A stretch of 64,000 bases of DNA from Parcubacteria group bacterium (GTDB lineage: Bacteria; Patescibacteriota; Minisyncoccia; 2-02-FULL-40-12). Positions 83 through 59,255 of the stretch are shown here, piece by piece. The stretch lies in contig JACPLU010000003.1 in the NCBI GenBank assembly GCA_016186395.1, forward strand, positions 148,022-212,021, written 5' to 3'. The notes below the pieces were generated by a model. It saw only the letters and a list, made by a program, of their open reading frames with translations. It had not been told where the DNA came from and did not search any database. A program made the translations under genes and the position numbers. The stretch's first letter is position 1. Each line of letters opens with the position of its first letter.

Positions 83-278
83 GTGAATAATACTCTTTCT
101 CTTTCTTCGCAAACCCCAGCGTGGTTTACTCAGGGGTTGAGCCCTTCGCTCTTTCTCTGTCTGGACTAGTAAATCCAGACAGAGAAAACCATGCCCGTCC
201 CGATTTCTGCTCCGCAGAATCGAGGATCCTCGATAGCATCGGGACTACGGGCTCAAAACCCGTTCAAGAGTATTATTC
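83..278 (+). mobile_element. MITE-like element copy 1. It has 16-bp TIRs (GGTGAATAATACTCTT / AAGAGTATTATTCACC family) and two central hairpins.
   Basis: The conserved left arm (TCTCTTTCTTCGCAAACCCCAGCGTGGTTTACTCAGGGGTTGAGCCCTTCGCTC) and right arm (GGGCTCAAAACCCGTTCAAGAGTATTATTC) match those of four other copies in the window. The central hairpin is ctctgtctgga...tccagacagag. Confidence 0.75.
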
Positions 279-1948: not shown

Positions 1949-3523
1949 TTAGTTTACAGAGTCGGGATCAATCCCGCTCTTTTTGTTTAAAATCGCAAGG
2001 TTTAAAGTAACCATTGAGGTAAACATCAAGAAAGAGCGTTCATCAGTTAATGCGGCGTCAGTGAGACTGTAAAGTAAAACCCAAACGTAAGAAATTAAGA
2101 AATAAAAATGGGTACTCGTTTGTATAGAATTTTTTAGTTTCTGCGTCTGTTTTAAATAAGTATAGATTTTTCTAAATATTAACCAAAAAAGCCACATAAA
2201 AAGTAAACCGCCTATGATTCCAATTTCAGCTAAAAAATTTAAATAAAGGTTATGAGCTGAAGAACCAGCCTTAGCAAGTTCGATCTTTTGATTTAAAACA
2301 ACCGGAAAATTCCCTATTCCGACACCCAATAAGGGGTGTTTTTTAATTGATTCAAGTGTGGCTTTCCAGATTAAAATTCGACCGCTGTTTGAAAGTTCGG
2401 ACGCATCTAAAAGAGATTTAATTCTTGTGTTAATAAGATCAAGTCCGCCGTGAACCTTAAATTGGGCCGTTGAAAAAATAAAATAAGTTAAACCGAAAGC
2501 AATCAAAAAGATTATAATTAATTTCCCGCCTAATTTTGCGTATTCTTTATACCCTTTTACCCAATAGTAAATCGTTAAGAGGATTGGCCCCAAAAATGCA
2601 AGCCAAATGCCACGGGTACCGGTGAGGACTATAGCTAGTAGGAATACGAAACATAAAACTTGAAACATTAAACTTGAAACATGGGACACAGAATTTTTTA
2701 TGGTATTTTTTATGTAAAACAAACCCGGAAGGGTCATAATTAGAAACATTGGGAAGCTATGAGAATCTGGAAATGATGAAAACATTCTTAAAACTAGTTT
2801 CTCGCCAAAATACGCGAACCAAGTGTTTGCATTCAATGCCGTTTTTCCCCATTCAAAACCATATAAGTTAGTGTCTATTTTTAAAGCCCAAAACTTTAAA
2901 AAACTATCCGGATCCATAAAATAAGTCATACCTAACTGGATAAAACCGATCATAACTGCAATAGCCCCGGCTATTAAAGACACCTTTAAAATTTTTTCAT
3001 AAAACAACTTTCCCCTTTTTACTTCAAAGTAAATTACTGTGGGTATGATTAAAATATTAGCGAAGTAAATTATTCTTTTTATAGCTGCAAATTTGTCTGG
3101 AGCAACAAAAACAGAAAGTACACAAATGATAAATAGTAGAATTATTAGGGAAGAGATTTTGTGTTCTCTAAAGAATAAAACGGGTTTTTTAAAGACTAGA
3201 ACTAGTTGATTAAAGAAATTTAATATTATATATCTTTGGAAAAACCATTTTAAAAAGATTAAACCGGCTATAATACGCCATATATTAAAGTTGTCAAAGT
3301 TTGGGGTTATGGGTAAGGCGATAAATAACGGAATGGATTGAATAAAAAGGGTTATTAGGTTGCCAAAGTGGTGTTTAAAAATGAAAATAACCCAGAATAA
3401 AAGCAACAAAAAAGCCCAGTGGCGATCAAGTATGCCAAGGGCGACAAGGGGTACTATAATGAGTTCAATCAAAAAAATGGTCTTGGAACTAATATATCTA
3501 AGCATTTGATTTTCCACATGCAC
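1949..3523 (-). CDS. O-antigen ligase / polymerase-like polytopic membrane protein (Wzy_C-like)
   Basis: It has many transmembrane helices and a motif resembling the Wzy_C periplasmic loop (TGTRGIWLAFLGPILL). It sits inside a glycosyltransferase cluster. Confidence 0.55.
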   Translation of the reverse strand: MHVENQMLRYISSKTIFLIELIIVPLVALGILDRHWAFLLLLFWVIFIFKHHFGNLITLFIQSIPLFIALPITPNFDNFNIWRIIAGLIFLKWFFQRYIILNFFNQLVLVFKKPVLFFREHKISSLIILLFIICVLSVFVAPDKFAAIKRIIYFANILIIPTVIYFEVKRGKLFYEKILKVSLIAGAIAVMIGFIQLGMTYFMDPDSFLKFWALKIDTNLYGFEWGKTALNANTWFAYFGEKLVLRMFSSFPDSHSFPMFLIMTLPGLFYIKNTIKNSVSHVSSLMFQVLCFVFLLAIVLTGTRGIWLAFLGPILLTIYYWVKGYKEYAKLGGKLIIIFLIAFGLTYFIFSTAQFKVHGGLDLINTRIKSLLDASELSNSGRILIWKATLESIKKHPLLGVGIGNFPVVLNQKIELAKAGSSAHNLYLNFLAEIGIIGGLLFMWLFWLIFRKIYTYLKQTQKLKNSIQTSTHFYFLISYVWVLLYSLTDAALTDERSFLMFTSMVTLNLAILNKKSGIDPDSVN

Positions 3524-5257: not shown

Positions 5258-6232
5258 TTATTCTATTTTCCCGAATCTATTTTTGTAAAAGTCAATCACC
5301 CCATTAAGTATAGCTAGCGATTCTTTTTTGTTTCTGCCAATTAAAATTTTCAAGGTTTGTTTAAAGATTACCCAAAGACTCCAGGGCCACAAAAGAATCT
5401 TTACCAATATTGGGCCATGTTTTTTATTAAAATAAAGGGCATTTCGGAAGTGATAACGTAAAAGTAGTGGAGAGCCAAGCTTTGAGGTAGAAGATGAAAC
5501 TTTATGCTTTATTTTAGCATCTTCAGCTACTTTGATTTTAAATCCTGCCTTTTGTGCATGTAAGCAAAAATCGGCGTCCTCAAAATATAAAAAATATTCA
5601 TTTGGTAACACTATTTTTTCAAAAACCTCTTTTTTGACTAGCATTGCGGCTCCGGGAATATAGAGATCTTGGGACTTGGATCTTGAGTCGTGAATCATGG
5701 ACTCAGGGTTTGTATTTTGTTCTCCGTGTTCCATATTCCACGTTCCATGTTTCAACTCTGATTTGAGCCATTGGATTCTTCCGCCTTCTACTATCCACCT
5801 ATCGTTATTTTGTGCGTATTCTTCTATAATAGGTCCGACTATGGCAACGTTATTTGATTCAATGGTATGAATTAGTCTTTCAATTGTATTTTTCTCAACC
5901 GCCGCATCATTATTTAGAACAAAAATGTAGTCAGCGTTATTTTCTAGAGCCTTAAGGATTCCAACATTATTTCCCCCGGCATAACCTAGGTTTTTTAGAT
6001 TTTGTATGAACTCTAACCTTGAACTATAGTGATTAGCTTGTTTTTGATAATTTTCAATAAATAACCTTAACTGTTTTGGGGACTCGTCTGTAGAGCCGTT
6101 ATCAATTACCATAATATCCAGATTAAAATTATCTGTTTTTGATTTTAATACCGATTCTATACAGTTAATCGTGTCTGGAAAGTCATTCCAGTTAAGAATA
6201 ATTACGGATGTTTTTTTGAGTAGATTTGGCAT
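5258..6232 (-). CDS. Glycosyltransferase family 2, carrying an in-frame CATG-element insertion
   Basis: The N-terminus (VIILNWNDFPDTINCIESVL ... DNGSTDES) is GT2-like. The low-complexity segment HGTWNMEHGEQNTNPESMIHDSR is encoded by a CATG-rich repeat. Confidence 0.8.
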   Translation of the reverse strand: MPNLLKKTSVIILNWNDFPDTINCIESVLKSKTDNFNLDIMVIDNGSTDESPKQLRLFIENYQKQANHYSSRLEFIQNLKNLGYAGGNNVGILKALENNADYIFVLNNDAAVEKNTIERLIHTIESNNVAIVGPIIEEYAQNNDRWIVEGGRIQWLKSELKHGTWNMEHGEQNTNPESMIHDSRSKSQDLYIPGAAMLVKKEVFEKIVLPNEYFLYFEDADFCLHAQKAGFKIKVAEDAKIKHKVSSSTSKLGSPLLLRYHFRNALYFNKKHGPILVKILLWPWSLWVIFKQTLKILIGRNKKESLAILNGVIDFYKNRFGKIE

Positions 6233-6234
6233 AT

Positions 6235-7389
6235 TTAAATTTTAGATTCGATAAAATCTAAAATTTGCTTTTTAAATCTTTCTTCTGAAAACTTTTCTGC
6301 ATGTTTTTTTAGCACAAGCGGGCTGTAGTAGCCTGTTTTTATTTTTTCATAGATTCTTCTGGCCCCATCCGCCAAAACTATTGGATTGGGATCATCAAAA
6401 AATTCACCGGTTACTCCTTCAATTATACTTTCTTTTGCTCCTCCACGGCGTAATGCTAATATCGGTTTACCATGACTCATAGATTCAACAGGCGTTATGC
6501 CAAAATCTTCTTCTTGGGGCATAACAAATGCGATTGAGTTTTGATACAAGGTTTGTAATTCTTGGTCATTTACAAAACCGGTAAAAAAGATATTTTTTGC
6601 ATCCAATCTTTTAGTCAAGCTTTTTAAAGAAGTTTTTTCTGGTCCCCGGCCAACAATAATCAACGGCCATTGAAGTTTGGCAAATGCTCGTATAGCAATA
6701 TCAATATTTTTATGTTTAAAAAGCTGGGAAACAATGAGAAAATAATCGGAAGAAACCCTTGAATCTTGAACCTTAAATCTTGGATCACTTTGGTCATGAT
6801 TCATGTTCCATGTTTCATGGTTTATGTTTACCGGAGGATAAATTACAGTGGTTTCTTGCCGGTAGTATTTCCTAATCCTTTGAGCGACATTTTTGGAGTT
6901 AGCTATAAAATAGTCAACCCTTGCGGAGGCAGCCTTATCCCAAATTCTAGCAAAGTGTTGGAACAAAGTTACGCCGACATATTTTAGTGGTCCTCTTTTT
7001 TTAAACTCTTGGTTGTATTCTGATGACCAATCCCAGAGCCAACGGGTTGGACTGTGGCAATAACAAATATGGCGCGTATGGGGTTTTAAAATAACTCCTT
7101 TGCTAAATGCGATGTTAGAAGAAATGACTAAATCATATGAATCAAATCTGAAAGCTTCGGCGGCCAAGGGCATTAAAAATGGTAAGTAAGGGTAGATTTT
7201 TAAAATAAATGGTATTTTTTGAAGAATTGAGGGAACTATTTTTGCATTAGGCAAATATTTTTTAGTGAATTCTTTCGAATAAACCAGGGTATATATGGGT
7301 GCTTCGGGGAAAATTTTATGTAAGGCAATGATAACGCGCTCGGCGCCGCCAAGATTTAAAAGCCAGTCATGTATTAGTGCTACTTTCAA
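6235..7389 (-). CDS. Glycosyltransferase family 1 (GT4-like), carrying an in-frame CATG-element insertion; apparent TTG start
   Basis: MKVALIHDWLLNLGGAERV is a GT4 N-terminus. The segment HETWNMNHDQSDPRFKVQDSR parallels the insert in the neighbouring GT2 gene. Confidence 0.8.
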   Translation of the reverse strand: MKVALIHDWLLNLGGAERVIIALHKIFPEAPIYTLVYSKEFTKKYLPNAKIVPSILQKIPFILKIYPYLPFLMPLAAEAFRFDSYDLVISSNIAFSKGVILKPHTRHICYCHSPTRWLWDWSSEYNQEFKKRGPLKYVGVTLFQHFARIWDKAASARVDYFIANSKNVAQRIRKYYRQETTVIYPPVNINHETWNMNHDQSDPRFKVQDSRVSSDYFLIVSQLFKHKNIDIAIRAFAKLQWPLIIVGRGPEKTSLKSLTKRLDAKNIFFTGFVNDQELQTLYQNSIAFVMPQEEDFGITPVESMSHGKPILALRRGGAKESIIEGVTGEFFDDPNPIVLADGARRIYEKIKTGYYSPLVLKKHAEKFSEERFKKQILDFIESKI

Positions 7390-7473
7390 AACTCAAAATT
7401 TAAAAGTTGGAAGTCAAAATTTTTATTTTTGACTTGAATTTTTGAATTTTACTTTTTGCCTTTTGATTTAATT

Positions 7474-8481: not shown

Positions 8482-8849
8482 GTAGGAAAGTTAAAATTTA
8501 AAATGCAAAATTCAAAATTTAAAACTTGGAATTTACATAGTAAATTTTATCCGTACTTTTGCTTTTTACTTTTTGCCGCCTTTGGTCCAGCCTCGCCTCT
8601 CGCTTACGGCGGGGCTAGTCTTAGACGGCCGGCGGGAGTTTTAATTTATCAATCTAGCAGTTTATTATAAACCTCTCAAGTCCAGCACCACTTTTTTGAA
8701 AAAAGTGGTGCTGGGCAAGCCCCGCACCCCCGCCTGCCGGACGGGCAGGGAGTCCAGCACTGGTTTTCTGTACCCCCATACCTTTTGTTTTACAAAATGT
8801 GTGGGACTGTTCTGGATCTGGTGACGGGGACAAACAAACTAGTTTGGTA

Positions 8850-9003
8850 AAAATAATACTCTTGAACGGGTTTTGAGCCCGTAGCGGGCATGGTTTATCC
8901 CGCCCCAGTTTATTTAAATAAACTGGGGCGGGATAAGAGCGAAGGGCTCAACCTCTGAGCAAACCACGCTGGGGTTTGCGAAGGAAGAGAAAGAGTGTTA
9001 TTT
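8850..9003 (-). mobile_element. MITE-like element copy 2 (reverse orientation)
   Basis: It is the reverse complement of the conserved arms. Its central hairpin (cccgccccagtttatttaaataaactggggcggg) is nearly identical to that of copy 3. Confidence 0.75.
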
Positions 9004-9059
9004 ACCAAACCAACAGACTGATTCTAGCCAAAGACAAAGTTTTATGGTAGTATGAAAAA

Positions 9060-10720: not shown

Positions 10721-11063
10721 TTTTATAAATTTCTAAGTTTTTAATAATTTTTGACCTAAGTCTGTTTTTAGGCAACATGGCTAAAACTGTTTGTTTAACT
10801 AATTTTCTTGAGTCCTTTTTTACGACTTTCTCTAGACTTTCTGCCTTAATTCCACCTGGGTATCCAGTGTATCTGTAGTAGATTTTATTTTTTAGTTTTT
10901 TACCAGTAAATTTTAGTTTATCAGTGTTAACAACTATTACTTTTGTTTGAGGTAGTATATTGTATTCAAAAGAAGGTTTATTTTTGTCGCGTAAAAGTAT
11001 AGCAATTTGAGTTGCTAATCTTCCTAATACTTGATTTGTGGCATCTATTTTAACTTCGGTCAT
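10695..11063 (-). CDS. rplM: 50S ribosomal protein L13
   Basis: GRLATQIAILLRDKNKPSF...YYRYTGYPGGIK matches L13. The ATG at 11063 is preferred over the TTG start in the ORF track. Confidence 0.85.
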   Translation of the reverse strand: MTEVKIDATNQVLGRLATQIAILLRDKNKPSFEYNILPQTKVIVVNTDKLKFTGKKLKNKIYYRYTGYPGGIKAESLEKVVKKDSRKLVKQTVLAMLPKNRLRSKIIKNLEIYKNDSKKTNN

Positions 11064-11165
11064 GCGCGATACCAATATACTAACGCATACTAATTATACT
11101 CATAAGATTCGTCGCGTCAGACGCGATTCGTATCATTAGTATCAATTCGTATATTTGAATCGAAT
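11064..11165. repeat. Alpha-operon intergenic structured repeat, copy a
   Basis: It shares about 95 nt with copies b and c: GATACCAATATACTAA(C/T)(G/A)CATACTAATTATACTCATAAGATTCGTCGCGTCAGACGCGATTCGTATCATTAGTATCAATTCGTATATTTG. Confidence 0.8.
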
Positions 11166-11513: not shown

Positions 11514-11615
11514 ATGCGCGATACCAATATACTAATACATACTAATTATACTCATAAGATTCGTCGCGTCAGACGCGATTCGTATCATTAGTATCAATTC
11601 GTATATTTGAATCGG
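11514..11615. repeat. Alpha-operon intergenic structured repeat, copy b
   Basis: Nearly identical to copy a. It fills the entire rpoA-rplQ gap. Confidence 0.8.
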
Positions 11616-12386: not shown

Positions 12387-12389
12387 AAA

Positions 12390-12490
12390 ATAGTGATACC
12401 AATATACTAATGCATACTAATTATACTTATAAGATTCGTCGCGTCAGACGCGGTTCGTATCATTAGTATCAATTCGTATATTTGCATCGG
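12390..12490. repeat. Alpha-operon intergenic structured repeat, copy c
   Basis: It matches copies a and b with a few substitutions. It fills the rpsD-rpoA gap. Confidence 0.8.
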
Positions 12491-13776: not shown

Positions 13777-14162
13777 TAGGTTGGTGATGTTGCTGGTCGT
13801 CTTCCAGAGCCCATAGTTTTTCTAAGGTTACCTCTTAGAGTTCTAGAGTTAGTTTTAGTTCTGCCACGAATTGGAAGTTTTCTAGCATGGCGGGACCCTC
13901 TCCATGAGCCAGCATCTTTTAATCTTCTAATATTATCTGCAATCTGTCTTCGTAGGTTTCCTTCTATTGGGTAACTCTTTTCTATGATATTTTGGATCTT
14001 ATTAATTTCCTCGGACGTTAAATCTTTGGCCCTTCGGTTCAAAGGTATATTTGCTGATAGTAGTATTTTTTTACTCAAAGTTAAACCAACTCCATAAATA
14101 TAGGTCAGTGAGGTCTGAATATTTTTATTTTCTGGAATATTTATTCCTGCTATACGCGGCAA
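13776..14162 (-). CDS. rpsM: 30S ribosomal protein S13 (TTG start)
   Basis: PRIAGINIPENK...YGVGLTLSKKIL matches S13. Confidence 0.9.
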   Translation of the reverse strand: MPRIAGINIPENKNIQTSLTYIYGVGLTLSKKILLSANIPLNRRAKDLTSEEINKIQNIIEKSYPIEGNLRRQIADNIRRLKDAGSWRGSRHARKLPIRGRTKTNSRTLRGNLRKTMGSGRRPATSPT

Positions 14163-14235
14163 AATAAAATTAAAATTTAAAAATCAGAGGTCAAAATTAA
14201 TTTTGCTTTTTGATTTTTGAATTATGCATTACTTT

Positions 14236-14349
14236 TTAGCCTTGTCTTTGTTTGTGCTTTTTATTTTCACATATACAATAAAGTCGTCCTTTTCTACGCA
14301 CGATTTTGCACTTATTGCATATTTTTTTAACTGATGCACGTACTTTCAC
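14236..14349 (-). CDS. rpmJ: 50S ribosomal protein L36 (37 aa, GTG start); missed by the 60-aa ORF cutoff
   Basis: Manual minus-strand translation gives (M)[36 protein letters not shown]. This is the canonical L36 zinc-ribbon sequence, in the expected position between infA and rpsM. Confidence 0.75.
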
Positions 14350-28628: not shown

Positions 28629-29915
28629 CTAAGTAATTATTCCCCCTCCTAAAACAATATCTTTTTGATAAATTACTGCAGATTGGCCAGGGGTTATGGC
28701 CTTTTGTGGCTTTAGGAACTTTATCGTTCCATTTTTTTTAACTATGGCTTCTTGATCTGGTTGGCGGTAACGAGTTTTAACTGTCACTTTGAACGGAAAG
28801 TCAGGATGGTTATTAGTCCAAGTCATGTTTTTTAATATGGCTGAAGTTTTAAATAATTGGCTTTCTTTGGTTAAGGTATCAACAAAGAGAGTATTTTTTT
28901 TAATATCTTTTCCAGAAACGAAATAAGTTTTTCCATTACCTTGAATATTTAAACCATGACGCTGGCCAATGGTGTAATAATAAATCCCATCGTGCTTACC
29001 GACGGTTTGACCGTTTTTGGCATAAACAATATTTCCCGGTTTTGGTTTTATATAATTTTTTAGAAATTCATTCATTTTTAAATCTCCGACAAAACAAACA
29101 CCTTGGCTCTCTTTTTTATCCCAATTTGGCAAACCGAATTTTTTAGCAAGTTTACGCACCTCTGGTTTGGTATAATCACCTATTGGAAATAAACAATGTT
29201 TTAACTCTTTTTGAGTCAGAGTATATAAAAAGTAAGATTGGTCTTTATTTTGATCCTTACCTTTGTGAAGCTCGAAAGTATAAGACGACAAGCTTTGTGA
29301 GGTAATTTGAGACGGCGCGGGCATGGTTCCGGGTAGAATACCTGGAGAGCGCCGGCTCAACTTAGAGAAATTCCTCGCTGGGGAATTTCTCGTGCCGAAC
29401 AAGACTTGTCGTCTTTTTATCCCGGCGTAATGACCGGTGGCAATATAATCCGCTCCTTCTTTTAATGCCTTTTTTAAAAAAGCCCCAAACTTTATGTGTT
29501 TATTACACATTACATCGGGGTTTGGGGTGAGACCTTGTCGGTATCCGTTAATCATGTAGTTAGTAACCTTTTTTTCATACTCATTTGACAAATCCCAAGT
29601 TAAAATAGGAATTCCTATTTTTGCAGCAACACGCACGGCATCCTCTCGATCTTGTTCCCACATGCAGTTAGTTGTTGGTTGATAGTTGTTCGTTGATAGT
29701 TGGCTTTGCCATGGTTTCATAAAAACTCCGACTACATTGTAGCCCCTAAACCCCTTTGGGGTCGGGCGACCAAATAATCTTTTAAAATTATTTGGTTTAG
29801 CCTGTTTTAGTAAAAAAGCGGCAACAGAGGAATCTACTCCACCAGACATTGCGACATAAACCGTTTTTTGTTCTGACCTTGACATAGTTTTATTTAAGTA
29901 ATAAGATAATATCAT
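28629..29915 (-). CDS. mnmA: tRNA-specific 2-thiouridylase MnmA, with a ~45-aa in-frame insertion
   Basis: The PP-loop SGGVDSSV and CNKHIKFGAFL...ATGHYA are MnmA signatures. The insertion 29282..29415 is bounded by an 11-bp inverted repeat (AAGACGACAAG / CTTGTCGTCTT). Confidence 0.85.
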   Translation of the reverse strand: MILSYYLNKTMSRSEQKTVYVAMSGGVDSSVAAFLLKQAKPNNFKRLFGRPTPKGFRGYNVVGVFMKPWQSQLSTNNYQPTTNCMWEQDREDAVRVAAKIGIPILTWDLSNEYEKKVTNYMINGYRQGLTPNPDVMCNKHIKFGAFLKKALKEGADYIATGHYAGIKRRQVLFGTRNSPARNFSKLSRRSPGILPGTMPAPSQITSQSLSSYTFELHKGKDQNKDQSYFLYTLTQKELKHCLFPIGDYTKPEVRKLAKKFGLPNWDKKESQGVCFVGDLKMNEFLKNYIKPKPGNIVYAKNGQTVGKHDGIYYYTIGQRHGLNIQGNGKTYFVSGKDIKKNTLFVDTLTKESQLFKTSAILKNMTWTNNHPDFPFKVTVKTRYRQPDQEAIVKKNGTIKFLKPQKAITPGQSAVIYQKDIVLGGGIIT

Positions 29916-32236: not shown

Positions 32237-32647
32237 ATGGGATTTTTTATCAAACTATTATTATTTTTAGGCGTTATTGCCGGCATCTATTCATTTTTTG
32301 GCGGCAATACTTTTTCTAATCTAAAAGGGAAAATTATAGAAGTGGTTAGTCCCCCGTCACCTAGAGAAAAACTCGTTAGCAATTTGAGTAATAACTTTAA
32401 TAATTTAGAAGCTCTTATAAACAAATTGGGGTCTGACAGTATTTCTGTCCAAGAAAAGTTCAGTCTTAGCGGTGAGGCTCAAAAACTCGTTCATCAAACA
32501 GAGGATCTGGTTTCTGACCTAAACAATCTTGCTAAAAGTTCTGATAACGGAATATTTAAGACTGTTCTAAATAAAGTTTTGCCACAAACACAAAGTCCTA
32601 CACCCACTAGCGGTTTACAAGTTCAGTGTATTGAGCCTGGTGAATAA
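32237..32647 (+). CDS. Hypothetical secreted protein (136 aa). Its last codons and stop lie within the left TIR of MITE copy 4.
   Basis: N-terminal hydrophobic helix. The ORF ends ...PGE-TAA inside GGTGAATAA. Confidence 0.35.
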   Translation: MGFFIKLLLFLGVIAGIYSFFGGNTFSNLKGKIIEVVSPPSPREKLVSNLSNNFNNLEALINKLGSDSISVQEKFSLSGEAQKLVHQTEDLVSDLNNLAKSSDNGIFKTVLNKVLPQTQSPTPTSGLQVQCIEPGE

Positions 32648-37137: not shown

Positions 37138-38001
37138 TTATTGGGTTTTAATAAAAAATCTGGTTTTTTGTTTAACAAGTTCTTTAACGGCTCTTATTGC
37201 TGATGCGAGATATTTATAGGGCGTGGTTTCCTCCGGTTTTTGATGCAATGCTTCTTCTAAGCTTTCTTTGTAAGCAACCCTTAATTCTGTATTAAAATGT
37301 ATGTTCGATATTCCGTTATTAATGGAGTTTATTATATCTTGATCTTTCAGTCCTGACGCACCATGAAGAACTAAAAATACATCCGGAATAGTTAAAGATA
37401 TTTGTTGTAGTCGGTTTATATCTAGTTTTTCTTCTTGGTCTGTAACAATACCGTGAATGTTACCAAAAACGATAGCTAATCTGTCAACACCGGTTTTTTC
37501 TACGAATACTTTAGCTTCTTCGGGTTTGGTAAAATCTTCGGGTGTTATTTCTATTTTTTGTTGTACTTGGGAGGACCCTCTTAAATATCCGAGTTCCCCT
37601 TCAATAGAAACATCGGGATTTTTATTTTTAGCATACTCCAGAACTTTTTGGGTCAATTTAATGTTTTCCTCAAATTCAAGGGTTGAAGCATCAATAATAA
37701 TAGAATCATAGCCTTCATCTATGGCTGTTTTGCATTTTTCAAAACTTTTGAAGTGATCGGCATTTAGAAAAACCGGAAAATTATAATCTTCTCTGATAGC
37801 TCTTACCAGAGCTACAGCTTCTTTTAAGCCAAGGAAACTTGCTTCACCTTCAGATGTACCGACCATAACAGCTTTTGCTCCAGCCTCTTTTGATCCTTCA
37901 ACTATAGCCCTTAAAACGTCTGCAGTTGCAAAGTTAAAATGTCCAATTGCTTCTTGTTTTTCTTTTGTCTGTTGAAGATAATTATTAAGATTATTTTTCA
38001 T
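37138..38001 (-). CDS. fba: Class II fructose/tagatose-bisphosphate aldolase
   Basis: GHFNF...AVMVGTSEGE...LNADHFKS...IIDAS are class II aldolase zinc-site motifs. Confidence 0.8.
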   Translation of the reverse strand: MKNNLNNYLQQTKEKQEAIGHFNFATADVLRAIVEGSKEAGAKAVMVGTSEGEASFLGLKEAVALVRAIREDYNFPVFLNADHFKSFEKCKTAIDEGYDSIIIDASTLEFEENIKLTQKVLEYAKNKNPDVSIEGELGYLRGSSQVQQKIEITPEDFTKPEEAKVFVEKTGVDRLAIVFGNIHGIVTDQEEKLDINRLQQISLTIPDVFLVLHGASGLKDQDIINSINNGISNIHFNTELRVAYKESLEEALHQKPEETTPYKYLASAIRAVKELVKQKTRFFIKTQ

Positions 38002-38059
38002 GTTTTATGTTTTATGCCGTCTACGGTTCCAGTCTTAGCTTTGGTGGGCTCCGTATGTT

Positions 38060-45972: not shown

Positions 45973-46323
45973 ATGATCAAACAAAACTTTCATCAAAATC
46001 TCAGGGATAAAATAAATACTTATATTCATTTAGTGTACAAAGTAACTAAAGAATTTCCTCGTGAGGAAACATACGGAGTGACGTCCCAACTAAGGAGGTC
46101 TGCACTTTCGGTTATGTTAAACTATATCGAGGGATACGCAAGATTTAAAACCAAAGTTCATAAGAACTTTTTAGAGATTGCTTACGGCTCACTTCAGGAG
46201 TCTAAATATATTCTTGAATTTTCGCTCGAAGAAGAATTTATGAAAAAAGATAAATATATAAAATTAGCCCACTTAGCAGATGAAATCGGAGTTATGTTGT
46301 GGGGAATTATTACTAAATTATGA
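45973..46323 (+). CDS. Four-helix-bundle protein
   Basis: YKVTKEFPREETYGVTSQLRRSALSVMLNYIEGYAR is characteristic of the family named after 23S rRNA intervening-sequence proteins. Confidence 0.7.
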   Translation: MIKQNFHQNLRDKINTYIHLVYKVTKEFPREETYGVTSQLRRSALSVMLNYIEGYARFKTKVHKNFLEIAYGSLQESKYILEFSLEEEFMKKDKYIKLAHLADEIGVMLWGIITKL

Positions 46324-46353
46324 TCATGTTTTATGATCTAAGTTTCAAGTTCC

Positions 46354-46692
46354 ATGTTACAAGGCTTTAAAGTCCCAAAAAATAACGGAAAATATTATTG
46401 GACTAATCACATAGTTCAGAAAATGGTCTATTATAAAATTTCACCCTCAAGGGTGAAACGTATTATCAGAGCACCAGATAGAGTTGAAGAAAGTATTGTT
46501 CCTGGACTTGTGGCGGCAATGAAAAAGTTTTCTAAGTCTGCCAAAGAAGAAATTTGGGCGATTTATCAAGTAGACCATAAAAAATTAAAACTTATATCAG
46601 CGTGGCGTTATCCAGGGAAAAGTTCAGAAAGAAATCCAATTCCACAGGAGATTTTAAGAGAAATAAAATTAGTCATAAATCTTGGAACTTGA
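46354..46692 (+). CDS. Hypothetical protein (112 aa); its start codon is supplied by a CATG-rich element
   Basis: ORF immediately preceded by catgttttatgatctaagtttcaagttccATG. Confidence 0.3.
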   Translation: MLQGFKVPKNNGKYYWTNHIVQKMVYYKISPSRVKRIIRAPDRVEESIVPGLVAAMKKFSKSAKEEIWAIYQVDHKKLKLISAWRYPGKSSERNPIPQEILREIKLVINLGT

Positions 46693-46760: not shown

Positions 46761-47372
46761 CTATAACTGTATATCTTTAACTTTTAAATACATTTCTTCC
46801 GCTTTACTCCAGTCAAAATTATGCCAGAAATCCTCAATATATTTTTTTCTATCAGAGCCGTAGTCCATAAAGTAAGCGTGTTCATAAACATCTAAAACAA
46901 TAATTGGAAGACATCCCCATACCCCGCCTTGATTGTGAGCATCGCCGTTGTAATGCCTTAAAGCGCCTATTTTGCTATCCCATGCTAATACTGACCAACC
47001 TCGAGAGGCCATAGCGCATTCTGAAAACCACTTGATTCCGTTTTCAACTGACCCCCATTTTTCTATCATAGCTTTTGACAACTCAGGTGCTTCTTCAGTA
47101 GCTCCTTTTCCACCCAAAACGTCAAAATACCATTCATGTAAATAAACGCCGTTAATAGCAAAGGTTTCTGCATCTTTTAAAGCTCTTAGTTCGCTATAAG
47201 TAGCATTACCCTCGGCTTTATTAGCCGCTCTCAATGCTTTAAGTTTTTCTAGTATCTCATTGCTTTTATTTACATAACCGACATAAAGCTTATCATGGTG
47301 GATTTGAACTGTTTTATCGGAAATTCCAGTTAATGGTTTTGAAAATGGAAGGGGTTTGGGTGAGTAAGGCAT
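46761..47372 (-). CDS. sod: Fe/Mn superoxide dismutase
   Basis: IHHDKLYVGYV...WEHAYFMDYGSDRKKYIEDFWHNFDW matches SodA/B. The start was placed at MPYS; the longer ORF-track start lies inside a CATG-rich leader element. Confidence 0.85.
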   Translation of the reverse strand: MPYSPKPLPFSKPLTGISDKTVQIHHDKLYVGYVNKSNEILEKLKALRAANKAEGNATYSELRALKDAETFAINGVYLHEWYFDVLGGKGATEEAPELSKAMIEKWGSVENGIKWFSECAMASRGWSVLAWDSKIGALRHYNGDAHNQGGVWGCLPIIVLDVYEHAYFMDYGSDRKKYIEDFWHNFDWSKAEEMYLKVKDIQL

Positions 47373-47592
47373 GAAGCATGGAACATAAAACATGAAACGT
47401 GGATCATAAAAATTCAGGTTTCAAGTTATAAGATCCAAGATTTAAGATTTAGGTCTCAAGTTACAAGATTCAAGAATTTATATTTGTATTTTTTCATTTT
47501 AAAGTTTAGTCTAAGTATAGCAGAAATAAGATTAATTCATAAGTTCTTTAAAATTGCAGTAGATTCGATAAACTCACTACAAGGAGGAACTG

Positions 47593-49635: not shown

Positions 49636-52341
49636 TCAGTTCCTGATTGTTTCTTTAACTTGAACCTTAAATTCCTTATCGAAGTCAAGATATAAAATAG
49701 AGCCTTTCTCGGGTTCTTTGCCTAAAATTATTTCTGAAATTCTATTTTCTACGTTTTTTTGTATTACTCTTCTTAATTCTCTTGCTCCAAAATGAGGATC
49801 GTATCCGTCTTTTGCTAACTGATCTACTGCTTTTCTGCTGACTTCCAATTCTAAACCGCCGCTTTTTAATTTTCGGCGCAATTTGTCTAATTGTAAACTA
49901 ACTATTAATCGAATCTCATCTTCGCCCAAAGCTTTAAAAACAATAATTTCGTCAATACGATTTAGAAATTCTGGCCGAAATATGGATTTCAAGTTATTAA
50001 TCAAAGTGCTTTTCATACTTTCATAACTTACCCTATCTTCTTCTGGTTTATCAGCTTCTCGATAAATAATATCTGATCCGGCATTTGATGTAGCAATGAT
50101 AATTGTGTTAGTAAAATCTATCACTCTGCCCTGCCCGTCTGTTAATCGTCCATCTTCTAACACTTGAAGTAATGAGTTAAATACATCTGGATGGGCTTTT
50201 TCGATTTCGTCTAAAAGTATGATGGAATGAGGTCTGCGCCTGACAGCTTCTGTTAGTTGACCGCCTTCTTCAAAACCCACATATCCTGGTGGCGCACCAA
50301 TTAGACGAGAAACATTGTGTTTTTCCATATATTCGGACATATCAAGACGAACTATTGAACCCTCGTTGCTAAACATTATTTGAGCCAATGTACGGGTTAG
50401 TTCAGTCTTGCCAACTCCAGTAGGTCCAAGAAATAAAAATGAAGCAATAGGACGATTAATATCTCCCATTCCTGCGCGGCCGCGTCTTATTGCGTTAGCG
50501 ACTGCCTTTACCGCTTCTTCTTGGCCAATGAGTCTTTCGTGAATTCTTTCCTCCAGCTTTAGAAGTTTTTCTTTTTCTTCTTGGGTAAGTTCAGTTATTG
50601 GTATTCCAGTAAGTTTTGAAATAATTTCAGCTATGTTGGCTGTAGTAACTTCAGGAGTTAATTTAGCTTTCTTAGCTTCCCATTCTTCAAATAATTTATC
50701 CCTTTGAATTTTTAATTCAGTAATTTCTTTTTGTAGTTGAGCAACCCTTTTTGTTTGTTTTGAACGTTTTGAAGCATCCAATTCTTTTTCTAAATTTTTA
50801 ACCTGTGACTCTAAATTTTTAATTTCTTCAGGTTCATTGGTAAACTGAATTCTTACTCTTGCCGCTGCTTGGTCAATTAAGTCTATGGCTTTATCCGGTA
50901 AGAAACGATTAGAAATATAACGATGCGATAATTCTGCTGCTGCGATTAATGCCTCGTCAGAAATTTTAACCCTATGGTGGGATTCATATCTGTCTCTTAG
51001 GCCTCGCAAAATTTCAGCAGTTTCTTTAACTGACGGTTCTCCTACAAATACCGGCTGAAAACGGCGTTCCAATGCCGCATCTTTTTCAATATATTTTTGA
51101 TACTCTTTGAGTGTAGTCGCTCCAACCACATGAAGCTCGCCTCTTGCAAGAGCCGGTTTAAACATATTAGCCGCATCCATGACTGTTCCTTCGGCGCGGC
51201 CAGCCCCAACAAGAAGATGGATTTCGTCAATAAAGACGACTAATTTATCAGAATTTTCTCTTATCTCATCGACTATTCCTTTTAATCTTTCTTCAAATTG
51301 GCCTCTATATTGTGTGCCGGCAAGAATACCAGACAAATCAAGTTCAACAACTCGTTTACCTTGAAGTGGTTCTGGAACGTTTCCTGAAACAATTCTTTGG
51401 GCTAAACCTTCAACAATAGCCGTTTTACCAACACCAGGTTCACCAATTAATACAGGATTATTTTTAGTTCTACGGGCTAGAATTTCAATAATAGTTTCAA
51501 TTTCTTTTGCCCTGCCGATAACCGGATCAAGCTTGCCTTGGGCCGCTACTTTACTTAAATCTCTAGAAAATTGATCCAAATTTGGCGTGTTCATCATTGG
51601 TACAAAACCTTCTTTTGAACCGCGTCCAACTGTTTTCACGATTGCTTTTTGTAAAACCTCTTGACTAAGTTTTAGTCTTTTAAGTATTTGAGCGGCTAAA
51701 CCCTCTCCTTCTTCCATTAAAGCGAGAAGTAAGTGTTCTGGGCCAACATAGGTGTGTCTTAGATTTTGGGCAATTGGCAAAGCAATATCTAAAGCTCTTT
51801 TTAATCTCGGTGAATACTCAACTTGATAGGGCTCTTCATAACCTGTTTTAATTGATGATTTAACATCCATCTCCAGATTTTTAATATTTACTTTGGCCTG
51901 TTCTAATATTTTTTGTACGTTTGGTTCGTCAAGAAGTGCCAAAAGCAGGTGCTCTGTATCAACTTGATCATTTCTAAACCGACCAGCCAATCCAACCGCA
52001 CGTTGCAATGCCATTTGTCCTGATTCTGAAATATAGCTTTCAGTATCAACCCGTTCTTGAGTTTGCGGTTCTTGATTATTAAACATTTCCCCAAATAAAT
52101 CACCAAGTAAATCATCACCAAATATTCCACCTAATCCAAAGGGTGATTTATGGCTTTTATTTTTATCACTTTTTCTTGATTGATTAGGACCTGGTAAATT
52201 AAAGCTTATGCCTTTTGAAGCACAATTATCACAAAGATTCAGAGTTGAAGCTCTGCCGTTTATAATTCTTGTGATTTTTCTTGTTGCTTGATTTTTTTTG
52301 CAGTTATCGCATAGGGACATGGAACATGGAACACGAAGCAT
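49636..52341 (-). CDS. ClpC/ClpB-family double-ring AAA+ chaperone with an N-terminal ClpX-type C4 zinc finger
   Basis: There are two Clp N-domain repeats. NBD1 has GEPGVGKTAIVEGLA and NBD2 has GPTGVGKTELT and GYVGFEEGG. The N-terminus LCDNCKKNQATRKITRIINGRASTLNLCDNCASKG is ClpX-ZBD-like. Confidence 0.8.
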   Translation of the reverse strand: MLRVPCSMSLCDNCKKNQATRKITRIINGRASTLNLCDNCASKGISFNLPGPNQSRKSDKNKSHKSPFGLGGIFGDDLLGDLFGEMFNNQEPQTQERVDTESYISESGQMALQRAVGLAGRFRNDQVDTEHLLLALLDEPNVQKILEQAKVNIKNLEMDVKSSIKTGYEEPYQVEYSPRLKRALDIALPIAQNLRHTYVGPEHLLLALMEEGEGLAAQILKRLKLSQEVLQKAIVKTVGRGSKEGFVPMMNTPNLDQFSRDLSKVAAQGKLDPVIGRAKEIETIIEILARRTKNNPVLIGEPGVGKTAIVEGLAQRIVSGNVPEPLQGKRVVELDLSGILAGTQYRGQFEERLKGIVDEIRENSDKLVVFIDEIHLLVGAGRAEGTVMDAANMFKPALARGELHVVGATTLKEYQKYIEKDAALERRFQPVFVGEPSVKETAEILRGLRDRYESHHRVKISDEALIAAAELSHRYISNRFLPDKAIDLIDQAAARVRIQFTNEPEEIKNLESQVKNLEKELDASKRSKQTKRVAQLQKEITELKIQRDKLFEEWEAKKAKLTPEVTTANIAEIISKLTGIPITELTQEEKEKLLKLEERIHERLIGQEEAVKAVANAIRRGRAGMGDINRPIASFLFLGPTGVGKTELTRTLAQIMFSNEGSIVRLDMSEYMEKHNVSRLIGAPPGYVGFEEGGQLTEAVRRRPHSIILLDEIEKAHPDVFNSLLQVLEDGRLTDGQGRVIDFTNTIIIATSNAGSDIIYREADKPEEDRVSYESMKSTLINNLKSIFRPEFLNRIDEIIVFKALGEDEIRLIVSLQLDKLRRKLKSGGLELEVSRKAVDQLAKDGYDPHFGARELRRVIQKNVENRISEIILGKEPEKGSILYLDFDKEFKVQVKETIRN

Positions 52342-52393
52342 GAAACATAAAGTTGGATTTTAGGACTCACGATTCATGTTTTTACAAAAGTGT

Positions 52394-54957: not shown

Positions 54958-54964
54958 TTAACAA

Positions 54965-55896: not shown

Positions 55897-58530
55897 CTAT
55901 TTCGGTAACTCTTCAACAGAAATTGTAAATTCTTCACCACGCTGGATTTGTTTATCTAAAATTTTTCTAGCTATTATTACTTCAACTGTATTTTGGATGA
56001 CTCTTTGCATTGGCCGGGCGCCGAATTGCGGATCAAAACCAATTTCCGAAATATAATCTATCAGTTTTTCGTTAGGAGCAAATAAATAACTTTGTTCTTT
56101 AAGTCGTTCGCTAAGTTTTTTAAGAAGAATTTTTGCGACTTCTTTAATCTGTTCTCTGGTTAATGGATGAAAAACTATTATCTCGTCAAAACGATTCAAT
56201 AGTTCAGGAGTAAATAAATGATTTTTTAATATATAATCCAGAATAAGTTCTTTTTCTTGAGCAGTATCCGTATTTTGCGTAACTAGTTGACGAATAAATT
56301 CAGAACCGGCATTTGATGTGGCAATGATAATATTTTGTTTTAGAGAAACGGTTTTACCAAAGGCGTCAGTCATTCTGGCTTCGTCAAAAACCGGTAAGAA
56401 AAGATTTAAAATATTCGGATGGGCCTTTTCAAATTCATCTAATAGCACAACTGAAAAAGGTGACTCTCTTAATTTATTTACAAACTGACCAGGTTCTTGA
56501 GTTCGCAGAGAACCTATAAATCTGTCCATTGACTCTGACTCTTGAAATTCAGACATATCAAAACGAATCATTTTGTCTTCACTGCCGAAATAAACCTTAG
56601 CTAAAATTTTGGCAGTAAGGGTTTTCCCTACCCCTGTTGGCCCCACAAATAAAAATACCCCGGCTGGTTTATCGCGCTTCATCAGGCCCACCCGTAGTCT
56701 TAACATTGTTTCAGCCACTCGTTTTACAGCCAGTTCTTGATTAACAATATCTTCATGCATTAATTTTTCCAGGTTATCTATTTTTTCTTTTTCTGAACCG
56801 GAAACCTCCCCTAAAGGAACATGTGTTTTTTGGGTTATGGTTTTATTTACATCCTCGGCTAGAACAAAACTTTTACCTTGTTTAGCGACACTAGATGCAA
56901 CTTCCGTTAAAAGATCAATGGCTTTTTCGGGAAACGGAACATTGGGAATAAAGAAGTCTGCCTTGTCCACAATATTTTTAAGAGCTTGGTGGGTAACAAA
57001 AACACCTTGCTGACGCTCAATGGCCGGTAAAACTGTTTGTAAAATTTGTGTGGTTTGAACTTTATTTGGCTCTTGTATATCTATCTTTTCAAATAAACGC
57101 ATTAGATCTACCCGAGGCTCAATATATTTGTGAAAATTTTGAGAGTCTGTCAGAGCAATTACCTGAAAACGACTTGAGCCTAAATACGGTTTTAGAACTT
57201 CTGAAATATCAATTTTACCAACACCTTGAGCCGCGCCAACAAAATTATGAATGTCATCAATAATTAAAATTATATTGCCGGCATGTTCAGCGTCCTTTAA
57301 TACTCTGATGAGAGTTGCCTCCATTTCCTGTGTAGTCGGGCTTGAGGAAGTCAATAAAGCCATATTTAATTCCAAAACTCTTTTGTACTTCAAGGCCGGC
57401 AGGGCTTTGCCCTTGGCGACTAGGTCTGTAAAACCATAAACTATGGTATGTTTTCCAATACCCGGTTCGCCAACAAGCAATACGTTATTATCTCCGCTTC
57501 GAGATAAAGTTATTTCAATTTGATTAATTATCTCCTGGCGGCTGATGAGTCTTACTTCTTTTTTTCCTGTTTCAAAATATTTTGAAACGTCAGTTGCAAA
57601 TCTATCAAGTAAAGGAGTATAACCATATACCCAATCAACTCCAATTGGGGAAGAACGAAGTAGGTTTTCTAGTTCCCAAAATCTTCTGTGTTTTTTTAGG
57701 TATCCAAGGTTTGCCTCAAACCAAAGTCCCAGATCTACTAAGTCATCTCTGTCAATGTTCATTTCAAGGAACATTTTTCTTAAGACCTCGTTAGTATCAA
57801 AAAGGGCAATTAGCAAATCGGTTACTAAAATTCTTTCACTTTTATGTTCTTCTCTTAGTTTTTGGCATATTTCAATACACTTTTGAGCCTGTTCATCTAG
57901 CTGCCAATTTACATCTGAAGACTTTAATAACGTACTTGTTTGACTAAATCCAAATGCTTCTAAAACTTGTTTTTCAAGAGTTGGAGGATAAATTTCAAGT
58001 CTTTGCCATAATGCTCTTGCCGCAGAATGTCCTACAAGCGCGGCAAAAAGAGCATTTGTTGAAATTGATAAGTTTTTTTCCGCGCTCATTAGAGCCGCTT
58101 TATAAAACACCTGGGCTGTATCAAAATCTAAATATTCCAGAGGTTCAGAATCGCCCTTAAGCTTAGGTTCTTTTAAATACAAAGCAATAAAAATTTCAAA
58201 GAATGCTAATGAAAAACCTAAAGGAATAAATATATATGCCAAACCTAAAAATAAATCTTCAAAATTTAATAATTTAGTTAAATCAATTTTATTTAATATC
58301 GGTAAGTAATAAGCGCTGTTAGGGTTAATAATTACTTCTAGCCCGTGGCTAATTCCCCAAATAGCAAGATTACCAAACCCGATAATAAGAAACAAAACTC
58401 TCCATATTTTTAAAAGTTTCGTAGGGAATTGATTTAAGAATTTTACCGATGAAATAATTTTAGGAGTCATTATAATAAAGAAAAACCCTGGGCTATTGAA
58501 AAAACTAATACAAGCGGCCAAAGAACCCAA
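55897..58530 (-). CDS. Membrane-anchored Clp-like double AAA+ ATPase with a degenerate NBD1
   Basis: Three to four N-terminal transmembrane helices. NBD1 has GEPGIGKHT and IIDDIH. NBD2 is canonical (GPTGVGKTLT, LLDEFEKAHP). Confidence 0.7.
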   Translation of the reverse strand: MGSLAACISFFNSPGFFFIIMTPKIISSVKFLNQFPTKLLKIWRVLFLIIGFGNLAIWGISHGLEVIINPNSAYYLPILNKIDLTKLLNFEDLFLGLAYIFIPLGFSLAFFEIFIALYLKEPKLKGDSEPLEYLDFDTAQVFYKAALMSAEKNLSISTNALFAALVGHSAARALWQRLEIYPPTLEKQVLEAFGFSQTSTLLKSSDVNWQLDEQAQKCIEICQKLREEHKSERILVTDLLIALFDTNEVLRKMFLEMNIDRDDLVDLGLWFEANLGYLKKHRRFWELENLLRSSPIGVDWVYGYTPLLDRFATDVSKYFETGKKEVRLISRQEIINQIEITLSRSGDNNVLLVGEPGIGKHTIVYGFTDLVAKGKALPALKYKRVLELNMALLTSSSPTTQEMEATLIRVLKDAEHAGNIILIIDDIHNFVGAAQGVGKIDISEVLKPYLGSSRFQVIALTDSQNFHKYIEPRVDLMRLFEKIDIQEPNKVQTTQILQTVLPAIERQQGVFVTHQALKNIVDKADFFIPNVPFPEKAIDLLTEVASSVAKQGKSFVLAEDVNKTITQKTHVPLGEVSGSEKEKIDNLEKLMHEDIVNQELAVKRVAETMLRLRVGLMKRDKPAGVFLFVGPTGVGKTLTAKILAKVYFGSEDKMIRFDMSEFQESESMDRFIGSLRTQEPGQFVNKLRESPFSVVLLDEFEKAHPNILNLFLPVFDEARMTDAFGKTVSLKQNIIIATSNAGSEFIRQLVTQNTDTAQEKELILDYILKNHLFTPELLNRFDEIIVFHPLTREQIKEVAKILLKKLSERLKEQSYLFAPNEKLIDYISEIGFDPQFGARPMQRVIQNTVEVIIARKILDKQIQRGEEFTISVEELPK

Positions 58531-58865
58531 ATAATTAATAAGGCAAAAAAGGTGGCGCTTAAAATTAGTTCGTAAATAAGACCGGCAATAACAATAGCTA
58601 AACGGATGACTGCGGCAACTATTCTAATATAAAAATCCACTACTCCATTTATTATTTTAGATCCAAAAGTTTGTTCTTCAGGCAGTTGTGAGGGCATAAC
58701 GCGATGCCATGCAGAAAATAAGGTTGCTAAGTGTCTTGTGATTAAAAAGCGATGCCAAGTGCTAATCAAATAATTATTTAAAACCCTCAAGATGCCGGAT
58801 GGGGCTACCATATAATGCCAATAAAAGTATTGGATGAAAGCCATGAATCTTGAAACATGAATCAC
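58470..58865 (-). CDS. Hypothetical membrane protein (131 aa; start uncertain)
   Basis: Hydrophobic ORF. Its 5' end lies in a CATG-rich element. Confidence 0.3.
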   Translation of the reverse strand: MIHVSRFMAFIQYFYWHYMVAPSGILRVLNNYLISTWHRFLITRHLATLFSAWHRVMPSQLPEEQTFGSKIINGVVDFYIRIVAAVIRLAIVIAGLIYELILSATFFALLIIWVLWPLVLVFSIAQGFSLL

Positions 58866-59255
58866 AAAACATAAAAAAACCTTAAGTTTCGGATTCGTGT
58901 CATTCTTAAACTAGGTTTACTATATTTATTATATCAAAATTTGGAGGTTTATAGAAGTCCACGGGCTTACCTTGCTTCGCCGAGGCTACGCAAGACGAGC
59001 GCCCGTGGTACTCCAAGGAGTACAGGATTGATTTTGAAAAGATATTGATGCTTTTCAAAATCAATCCTGACTTATATAATTTCCCTACGCTCGCTTGCGC
59101 TCGCTTCGGGGCTGTCATTCATCCCCGAGCTGACGCTCGGGGTTTTCTGACAGGAATTATAAAGTAGTCTATGTCCACACGCAAAACAATGTTTATTTGA
59201 CATAAAACTATTCTTATGTTATATAAATTACATTGCAATTTACCAACTTTAAGGA

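Follow-up and report, generated by a model that had tools for sequence, protein, structure and literature searches.

Degenerate heptanucleotide arrays encoded in frame by two adjacent glycosyltransferase genes of a Parcubacteria bacterium

Two neighboring glycosyltransferase genes of an uncultured Parcubacteria bacterium contain extra in-frame sequence that consists of degenerate tandem arrays of 7-nt units and does not look like copies of a discrete transposable palindrome. Their case is one instance of a pattern that recurs across Yanofskybacteria-like Parcubacteria. The genes lie in a core chromosomal stretch of 64,000 nt (positions 148,022 to 212,021 of GenBank contig JACPLU010000003.1; hereafter, the window) that has a G+C content of 35.7% and whose nearest named relatives are Candidatus Yanofskybacteria. 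One gene encodes a glycosyltransferase of family GT2 with a GT-A fold (324 aa; 5258..6232, minus strand), and the other a glycosyltransferase of family GT4 with a GT-B fold (384 aa; 6235..7389, minus strand). The proteins are 100% identical to NCBI entries MBI2626940.1 (GT2) and MBI2626941.1 (GT4), which are listed as “MAG: Parcubacteria group bacterium” and come from a 239,152-bp contig.

An earlier note on this DNA had described a single CATG-rich element inserted in frame into both genes, and had likened it to the palindromic elements of Rickettsia. Translation of the open reading frames (ORFs) shows that both CATG-rich segments are indeed present and in frame. In GT2 the segment comprises residues 161–189 (KHGTWNMEHGEQNTNPESMIHDSRSKSQD, beginning KHGTWNME; 5666–5752), and in GT4 it comprises residues 190–215 (NHETWNMNHDQSDPRFKVQDSRVSSD, beginning NHETWNMN; 6745–6822, so that the position first given for it, 6758–6835, was ~13 nt off the peptide). 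Common to the two segments is TGAAACATGGAAC(G/A)TG, with 15 of 16 positions matching, as well as the peptide TWNM, which is absent from all other ORFs of the window.

Each segment belongs to a single in-phase array. The GT2 array (5654..5751, minus strand; residues ~161–190) has ~13 in-phase, degenerate units (AACATGG, AACGTGG, AATATGG, AACACGG, AGAACAA, AATACAA, ACCCTGA, GTCCATG, ATTCACG, ACTCAAG, ATCCAAG, TCCCAAG), whereas the GT4 array, in the linker between the two domains (6737..6826, minus strand; residues ~188–215), has 9–11 (CCATGAA, ACATGGA, ACATGAA, TCATGAC, CAAAGTG, ATCCAAG, ATTTAAG, GTTCAAG, ATTCAAG). These arrays, and one upstream of a superoxide dismutase gene (see below), each keep to one 7-nt register, with an identity at lag 7 of 0.49–0.64 (0.55 for GT2 and 0.49 for GT4) compared with ~0.2–0.3 at other lags. 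There is no pair of adjacent identical units in the GT2 array, and the two apparent “arms” are diverged versions of a single direct repeat. The segments look palindromic because a self-complementary CATG (and CAAG/CTTG) core recurs every 7 nt, and for the same reason the GT copies fold no better than dinucleotide shuffles (RNA fold z-scores on the coding strand of −1.07 for GT2 and −0.64 for GT4, and on the other strand of −1.12 and −0.44, respectively). The GT2 array starts within conserved L-K-H codons (TTG AAA CAT; TTGAAACAT), and the GT4 array starts where the ancestral E-T codons (GAAACA) lie. Read by eye, the copies show neither fixed ends nor terminal inverted repeats nor target-site duplications, although no dedicated search for them was made.

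A third in-frame copy (2645..2693, minus strand; period 7 according to Tandem Repeats Finder, TRF) lies within a Wzy_C/O-antigen-ligase-like gene (1949..3523; PF04932, hereafter Wzy). Here the T-rich strand is the coding one, giving the peptide SHVSSLMFQVLCFVF, and the loop that holds the array is hypervariable across the clade. GT2, GT4, and Wzy are three consecutive cell-envelope glycan genes, and the ORFs of all three are intact.

The two glycosyltransferases are unrelated in fold, as the earlier note had held. GT2 matches PF00535 at 67.9 bits (cut-off 23.3), and its AlphaFold2 model, with a mean predicted local distance difference test score (pLDDT) of 90.8, is matched by Foldseek to the GT-A relatives GlfT2, TarP, and GalNAc-T. 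GT4 matches PF00534 (110.2 bits) and PF13439 (50.1 bits), and its model (mean pLDDT 89.4) is matched to the GT-B relatives BshA and MshA. Alignment with orthologues, a check that the note had suggested, shows that the extra residues are lineage-specific, in that most distant GT4 orthologues and most GT2 orthologues are shorter at these sites. The GT4 linker, bounded by the invariant P186 and L218, has 31 aa in the window but 16 aa in 65 of 77 orthologues from other bacteria of the Candidate Phyla Radiation (CPR) and from non-CPR bacteria, with the short form following the pattern V-[DE]-T-x-K-F-x-I-S-x4-D-Y-F. Likewise, the GT2 loop between the nearly invariant H162 and Y191 has 28 residues in the window but mostly 10–16 in orthologues. 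The same segment at the same position in distant relatives would have spoken for an ancestral loop. Strictly, no such case was found, although the GT4 of one comparison locus, L162, which is 48% identical, does have CATGGAA units there. In the structure models, both inserts are predicted to be surface coil of low confidence within confident models, and each is the sole internal low-pLDDT coil of its protein. Residues 167–190 of GT2 (pLDDT 57–66) would connect the strands at 161–166 and 196–200, whereas residues 190–215 of GT4 (pLDDT ~50) would connect those at 180–182 and 216–220, that is, the last strand of the N-terminal domain and the first of the C-terminal domain.

The wider comparison covers 80 metagenome and 80 genome loci around GT4 orthologues, within which the Yanofskybacteria-like clade has GT4 identities of 45–57%. 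In this clade the GT4 linker varies from 15 to 79 aa and comprises heptamer arrays or GC-rich perfect hairpins (the units include AAATTCC, CTATACC ×4, AATTACG, and AGTATCA/TAATACT), and the plain 16-aa linker also occurs in many members. For 25 of the 43 expanded GT4 linkers the best autocorrelation lag is 7. Their mean fold z-score is −2.83, as compared with −0.16 for control coding segments of the same genes, and 60% of them fall below −2, versus 7% of the controls. The density of period-7 repeats (TRF), in repeats per Mb, is 286 in clade loci, compared with 96 in other CPR loci, 46 in non-CPR loci, and 19 in shuffled clade sequence. The dominant periods in non-CPR loci are 9 and 12, as expected for coding DNA.

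The clade arrays are diverse, numbering 282 with 144 different canonical units, and mostly short (median 4.3 units; up to ~16 in the window). In some loci, L089 among them, there is ~1 array per kb, in spacers as well as in gene interiors, and the GT4 gene of L089 itself has a perfect tract, (AAGCTAC)×4.9. Genes for the clade statistics were called crudely as longest ORFs. On these calls, ~40% of the arrays lie wholly or partly in noncoding DNA, which makes up 10% of the sequence, and array ends are often ≤10 nt from a start codon. Of 149 arrays within coding sequences, 74% encode hydrophilic peptides (mean hydropathy −0.59, where the opposite strand would give +0.56). In the window the soluble enzymes GT2 and GT4 read the A-rich strand, and the membrane protein Wzy reads the T-rich, hydrophobic strand. 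Intergenic hairpins cluster at gene 3′ ends: the mean z-score is −3.9 for convergent spacers, −2.6 for tandem ones, and −0.8 for divergent ones. The 170 tandem spacers show no asymmetry between sense and antisense folding, which argues against selection at the RNA level. An origin of these hairpins in RNA-level selection via G-U wobble was rejected for this reason.

The turnover of the arrays can be seen in a sister species (loci L001–L004; ~91% nucleotide identity in flanking coding DNA). Its GT2 loop keeps the first two to three units (GAAACAT AAAACAT GGAATA) and continues with (ACAACCT)×4. Its GT4 linker keeps the TTCAAGA units, and the CATG (left) half is swapped for two GC-rich hairpins. 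In addition, the spacer between mreB and GT4 differs from that of the window by a 20-nt duplication, and the Wzy loop has exactly seven residues (21 nt, three units) fewer. Runs of N adjoin arrays in the sister contigs (about 1990–2000 and 3620 in L004; about 1790 in L001), and one such scaffold gap makes the sister GT4 gene appear as two ORFs.

Sequence is shared between sites of the same genome more often than between genomes. Nonadjacent arrays share units in 13.7% of cases within genomes and in 8.2% between genomes, and none of 300 permutations reached 13.7%. At four loci (L103, L095, L119, and L116), the match between the GT2 loop and the GT4 linker of one genome exceeds the 99th percentile of pairs taken from different genomes; the expected number of such genomes is 0.4. 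The shared stretch is 41 nt (93% identical) in L103, 42 nt in L095, and 26 nt (100% identical) in L119; the window and L123 are slightly below the 99th-percentile threshold. L103 and L095 have the same hairpin with compensatory differences in the stem, and each variant is found in both genes of its own genome.

Other inserts at these two sites are palindromic. A ~145-nt GC-rich palindromic element (containing CCAGAGCGGGGACCCC) occurs in the GT4 linkers of L107 (10540–10700), L117 (6030–6170), L097, and L135, and is in frame both ways. A nested 57-nt hairpin is common to L107 and L117 and is absent from L097, the closer relative of L107. The GT2 loops of L095 (2375/2410), L097 (2956/2996), L107 (11669/11709), and L117 (7183/7223) are flanked by inverted pairs of perfect DnaA-box sequences, TTATCCACA ... 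TGTGGATAA, 40 nt apart. A role as DnaA boxes or in an origin was rejected, given that the left box is the conserved L-I-H codons and the right one (V-D-K) is an inverted copy of it. The pairs look like the arms of a palindrome that grew outward from coding sequence.

Within the window, in-phase chains of at least three CWYRRAW units number 11, compared with 0.06 expected from shuffles (maximum 1). The copies span about 25–112 nt, with unit number and order varying. The longest, an intergenic array on the minus strand, has 16 in-phase units and extends to the start codon of an Fe/Mn superoxide dismutase (SOD) gene (array 47365..47476, gene 46761..47393; lag-7 identity 0.64, fold z −2.2). Also in spacers on the minus strand, one array abuts the start of a ClpB/ClpC-like AAA+ gene (array 52309..52379, gene 49636..52341; TRF, fold z −3.05), a CATG/CAAG-type array in 7-nt register abuts the start of ORF 58470..58865 (58835..58912; TRF), and CATAAAA CATAAAA CATGAAA runs up to the start codon of a class-II fructose-bisphosphate aldolase gene (37991..38016, gene 37138..38001; TRF). 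On the plus strand, a short CATG-type chain of CWYRRAW units (46325..46362) lies between ORFs 45973..46323 and 46354..46692, and the ATG of the latter is in the last TTCCATG unit. A further spacer copy of CWYRRAW type is at 46674–46694, and a related CTTGAAA array, detected by TRF only, is at 45933–45954. A different type, TCAAAAT/ATTTTGA, fills the mreB–GT4 spacer from the stop codon to the TTG start (7390..7473, minus strand; TRF, fold z −2.4), with similar arrays at 8485–8551 and 14161–14236.

In one further gene, mnmA (28629..29915), an in-frame array, CAACTAT CAACGAA CAACTAT CAACCAA (29669..29702, minus strand; TRF), encodes the peptide QLSTNNYQPTTN, which shows that heptamer arrays are not restricted to envelope genes. 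By comparison with E. coli MnmA, it lengthens a loop of this tRNA 2-thiouridylase between the “FMKPW” of the PP-loop domain and the cysteine of NCMWEQD.

Where arrays meet the start codons of the SOD, ClpB-like, and aldolase genes and of ORFs 46354 and 58470, the last CATG unit provides the ATG. The spacer arrays reach the starts of GT4, mreB, the ribosomal protein S13 gene, and the aldolase, SOD, and ClpB-like genes without a Shine-Dalgarno motif, and a clear GGAGG is present before other genes of the window. In the clade a Shine-Dalgarno-like motif was found at 2% of array-adjacent starts versus 15% of others, a difference that depends on crude start calls and on which we do not rely. CATG units also give false upstream ATGs that lengthen called ORFs (e.g., MFYVPCFM-PYSPK... 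for SOD). The richness in CATG was considered as a restriction-site effect, and this was ruled out because the observed/expected ratio of CATG in the window is 1.03.

Several other repeats and genes of the window may be mentioned here. Gene 45973..46323 (plus strand), which has CATG/CTTG arrays on both sides, encodes a four-helix protein of the 23S-rRNA-intervening-sequence/bAvd-like kind (PF05635, PF22296). The 29 window ORFs scanned with Pfam include no transposase, recombinase, reverse transcriptase, or Y1 transposase of the type associated with repetitive extragenic palindromic (REP) sequences (RAYT). In scans of the window, no Rfam family was matched and no tRNA was found. An element of ~170 nt, for which Rfam has no match, is present in five copies (66–283; 8852–9008, minus strand; 23463–23638; 32623–32787; 54949–55116). 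Terminal inverted repeats of 13 bp (GAATAATACTCTT ... AAGAGTATTATTC) enclose two GC-rich core blocks that are invariant and a hairpin whose sequence varies among the copies and whose pairing is kept. Its first copy has a nested insertion containing TCGAGGATCCTCGA, a palindrome discussed below. The element could be a MITE (miniature inverted-repeat transposable element) or a structured RNA. Finally, three consecutive genes (L13, a 115-aa ORF, and a 256-aa ORF) are each directly preceded by a copy of a 101-nt direct repeat (11062–11162, 11514–11614, and 12389–12489; 92%–98% identity among the copies), so that one leader or promoter has been reused.

On balance, and with modest confidence, we favor an explanation in which 7-mer repeats grow in place and are occasionally copied between sites, with the outcome filtered by reading frame and loop tolerance. 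Arrays of 7-nt units and small hairpins would continually arise and turn over wherever a change in length is tolerated. New units would be produced by replication slippage or by tandem duplication of a local 7-mer seed, for which the conserved L-K-H codons of GT2 and the ancestral E-T codons of GT4 are candidates. Inverted copies would be produced by fold-back or ectopic template switching, or by gene conversion, and template switching or gene conversion would at times transfer sequence from one array or site to another. In genes, selection would retain versions that stay in frame and are free of stop codons (in the risky frame, the unit reads TGG and not TGA), and the surviving arrays would be those in surface loops or linkers, with peptides that fit their context (hydrophilic in GT2 and GT4, hydrophobic in Wzy). 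Between genes, arrays would occupy the spacer from a stop codon to the next start codon. The structure of the arrays, their restriction to the lineage, their position in loops, the excess of period 7 across the clade, the turnover relative to the sister species, and the repeated sharing between the GT2 and GT4 sites are observed directly. From these we infer both that slippage and template switching are the generating process and that the encoded loops are neutral.

A number of observations weigh against this explanation. It offers no reason for the unit size of 7 nt, and the indels between near-identical loci, for which informative pairs are few, show no excess of 7-nt steps. At least eight sites in the window have CATGRAA- or TCAAGAT-like units in common, and a purely local origin does not account for this. 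With no more than one mismatch allowed, the 14-nt palindrome TCGAGGATCCTCGA is found in five genomes, in coding and noncoding DNA, compared with 0.35 hits expected (window 220–233; L001 1130–1143; L004 1857–1870; L089 11720–11733 and 16767–16780; L102 11408–11421). L107 and L117 carry the ~145-nt GT4-linker element in opposite orientations at 92% identity, although their flanking coding sequence is only 80% identical, which suggests that at least one class of insert is truly mobile or else strongly constrained. The crude longest-ORF calls behind the clade statistics have to be counted on the same side. From the site-sharing data and the inverted element together, it follows that at least some inserts move or are copied. 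In coding loops, the 14-nt palindrome is seen in the sister GT4 and in two different genes of L089 that have ~44 nt of identical context.

The main rival is a nonautonomous element resembling the Rickettsia palindromic elements (RPEs), that is, a CATG-rich palindrome that transposed into GT2, GT4, Wzy, and the spacers, with the in-frame loop copies kept. This accounts for the dispersal of copies as well as for the inverted element in relatives, yet we consider it unlikely. The 11 in-phase chains make it multicopy in one genome, but most arrays within a genome have different units, unit number and order vary among the copies, and the whole segment is one phase-continuous array that starts within conserved codons. 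Two unrelated genes do share one sequence, both in the window and, with sequences of their own, in L103, L095, L119, and L116, and the spread of TCGAGGATCCTCGA over five genomes and the inversion between L107 and L117 are again in favor of transposition. However, the GT copies fold like shuffles, conserved ends are not seen on inspection by eye (no dedicated search was made), nor are terminal inverted repeats or target-site duplications, and there are zero transposases among the 29 window ORFs scanned. Turnover in the sister species was piecemeal and in place, although the CATGGAA units at the L162 GT4 site, which the sister lacks, fit an element that moves; local seeds would also account for their presence in L162 and their absence from the sister. 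What stands of the earlier proposal is in-frame, lineage-specific repeat DNA in the loops of unrelated enzymes, with an outcome like that of RPEs. Insertion of a single mobile palindromic element is not supported, in view of single in-phase degenerate arrays, their weak folding and the start of the GT2 array in conserved codons, in-place turnover in the sister species, and sites that are hypervariable across the clade.

Selection for the sequences themselves is improbable in our judgment, whether for functional loops or for an RNA or DNA structure (a translational pause between the Rossmann domains, an internal site of processing or termination, or a protein-binding site that the two genes share for coregulation). 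Both GT sites are structured or repetitive in most clade members, and strong folding is far more frequent in expanded GT4 linkers than in controls; even so, the window GT copies are not significantly structured, and the plain 16-aa linker of many clade members and of 65 of 77 distant orthologues shows that the linker insert is dispensable. The frequent identity of GT2 and GT4 sequence within a genome and the compensatory stem differences between L103 and L095 suit a selected structure, but insert sequences are unrelated from genome to genome and arrays of the same kind occur in unrelated housekeeping genes. Similarly, the concentration of intergenic hairpins at gene 3′ ends is set against folding that lacks sense/antisense asymmetry. 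Least probable of all, and very much so, are phase-variable contingency repeats, in which GT2, GT4, and Wzy would be turned on or off by gain or loss of single 7-nt units. Heptanucleotide switching has been documented for NeuO and for HMW1A, the latter with 7-bp repeats in the Haemophilus hmw1A promoter (PMC13001214, PMC8262952). The likeness is in the 7-nt unit and in a host that is a surface-glycan enzyme, and here the arrays sit in three consecutive genes for cell-envelope glycans. Tracts of the type found in NeuO, a K1 capsule O-acetyltransferase with heptanucleotide repeats in its coding sequence, are long and perfect, lie at the 5′ end or in the promoter, and have documented switching of unit number. 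Those of the window and clade, in contrast, are degenerate, have few units, lie mid-gene, and extend to the housekeeping genes and spacers of the clade (e.g., mnmA, the spacers before ribosomal protein S13, SOD, and aldolase, and many other genes). Given the 7-nt unit, one unit shifts the frame, only multiples of three units stay in frame, and three units encode a 7-residue repeat; every observed allele is in frame. Perfect tracts such as that of L089 GT4 do occur in some relatives, but GT2 has no identical neighbors, and between near-identical loci there is no 7-nt step polymorphism in the sparse data available.

Repeat DNA that is translated within working genes has been documented mainly in Rickettsia. 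The arrays described here resemble RPEs in effect, and are outside the RPE family. In both cases, short repeat DNA is found between genes and is translated in frame within unrelated, functional genes of a small genome, at positions that the fold tolerates and without a linked transposase. The copies in GT2, GT4, and Wzy are in frame in intact genes, and those in GT2 and GT4 lie in coil of low pLDDT and are absent from distant orthologues. The RPEs, as outlined in PMC10969869 (drawing on Ogata et al. 2000 Science 290:347; 2002 Genome Res 12:808), are ~100–150 bp long and make up some ten families, in each of which the consensus and the peptide are conserved and the fold is clearly palindromic. 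No discrete conserved family is apparent here, in that the copies vary, the sole shared peptide is TWNM (in two copies), and orthologous sites in other genomes bear unrelated sequences. Nor is a stable stem-loop predicted for the GT2 and GT4 copies, although some intergenic copies and the linkers of many relatives do fold. The arrays differ further in being composed of degenerate 7-nt units of variable number and in showing signs of growth and turnover in place, and both the taxon (CPR/Parcubacteria) and the sequences are unrelated to RPEs.

Other known systems are less close. Bacterial interspersed mosaic elements (BIMEs), REP sequences, and MITEs are likewise abundant small hairpin repeats in spacers, mostly at gene 3′ ends and occasionally intragenic (PMC3184786, PMC3733652, PMC10969869). 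Whereas a REP is a GC-rich palindrome of 20–40 bp that ends in a conserved GTAG/CGTC tag, exists in many near-identical copies, and has a cognate RAYT gene, the present arrays are AT-rich, with sequences that vary from site to site and a 7-nt period; no GTAG/CGTC tag was seen, and the 29 window ORFs scanned lack a Y1 transposase. As for MITEs, neither terminal inverted repeats nor target-site duplications are visible in the aligned copies (no dedicated search was made), and the 13-bp terminal inverted repeats in the window belong to the separate 170-nt family. The PARCELs (palindromic amphipathic repeat coding elements) of Mollicutes are longer modules that form the bulk of dedicated surface proteins. 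They are characterized in PMC2996958 as horizontally distributed repeat coding sequence in repeat proteins. The parallel is that palindromic repeat DNA is translated in reduced genomes and can be read from either strand, whereas the sequences here are short, nonconserved loop insertions in enzymes. Full-text searching of the literature found no description of such repeats in CPR/Patescibacteria.

For practical work on these genomes, the arrays appear to break short-read metagenome assemblies, as gaps adjoin arrays in L001 and L004. They also inflate the N termini of predicted ORFs, because CATG units offer false start codons, and they give rise to low-complexity loops that mislead the comparison of CPR proteins by orthology and length. 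The strong preference for 7 nt is a testable mutational signature, and may indicate a peculiarity of CPR replication or repair.

In-place growth with copying between sites may have a broader counterpart, which we put forward tentatively and at rather less than even chances: a process specific to the Yanofskybacteria-like lineage that writes 7-nt arrays and hairpins into tolerant DNA, including the loops of proteins, and copies them between sites. If so, some peculiarity of replication or repair, or an unrecognized mobile agent, could be behind it, and neighboring genes such as GT4 and GT2 would evolve their inserts in concert. The arrays would then constitute a new class of in-frame “selfish simple repeat” that is neither an RPE nor a MITE nor a contingency locus, and would steadily supply CPR proteins with new disordered loops. 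A second case of repeat DNA translated within genes, one that differs in mechanism and here involves a whole CPR clade and an unusual 7-nt period, would show that reduced genomes keep making protein-loop novelty from simple repeats.

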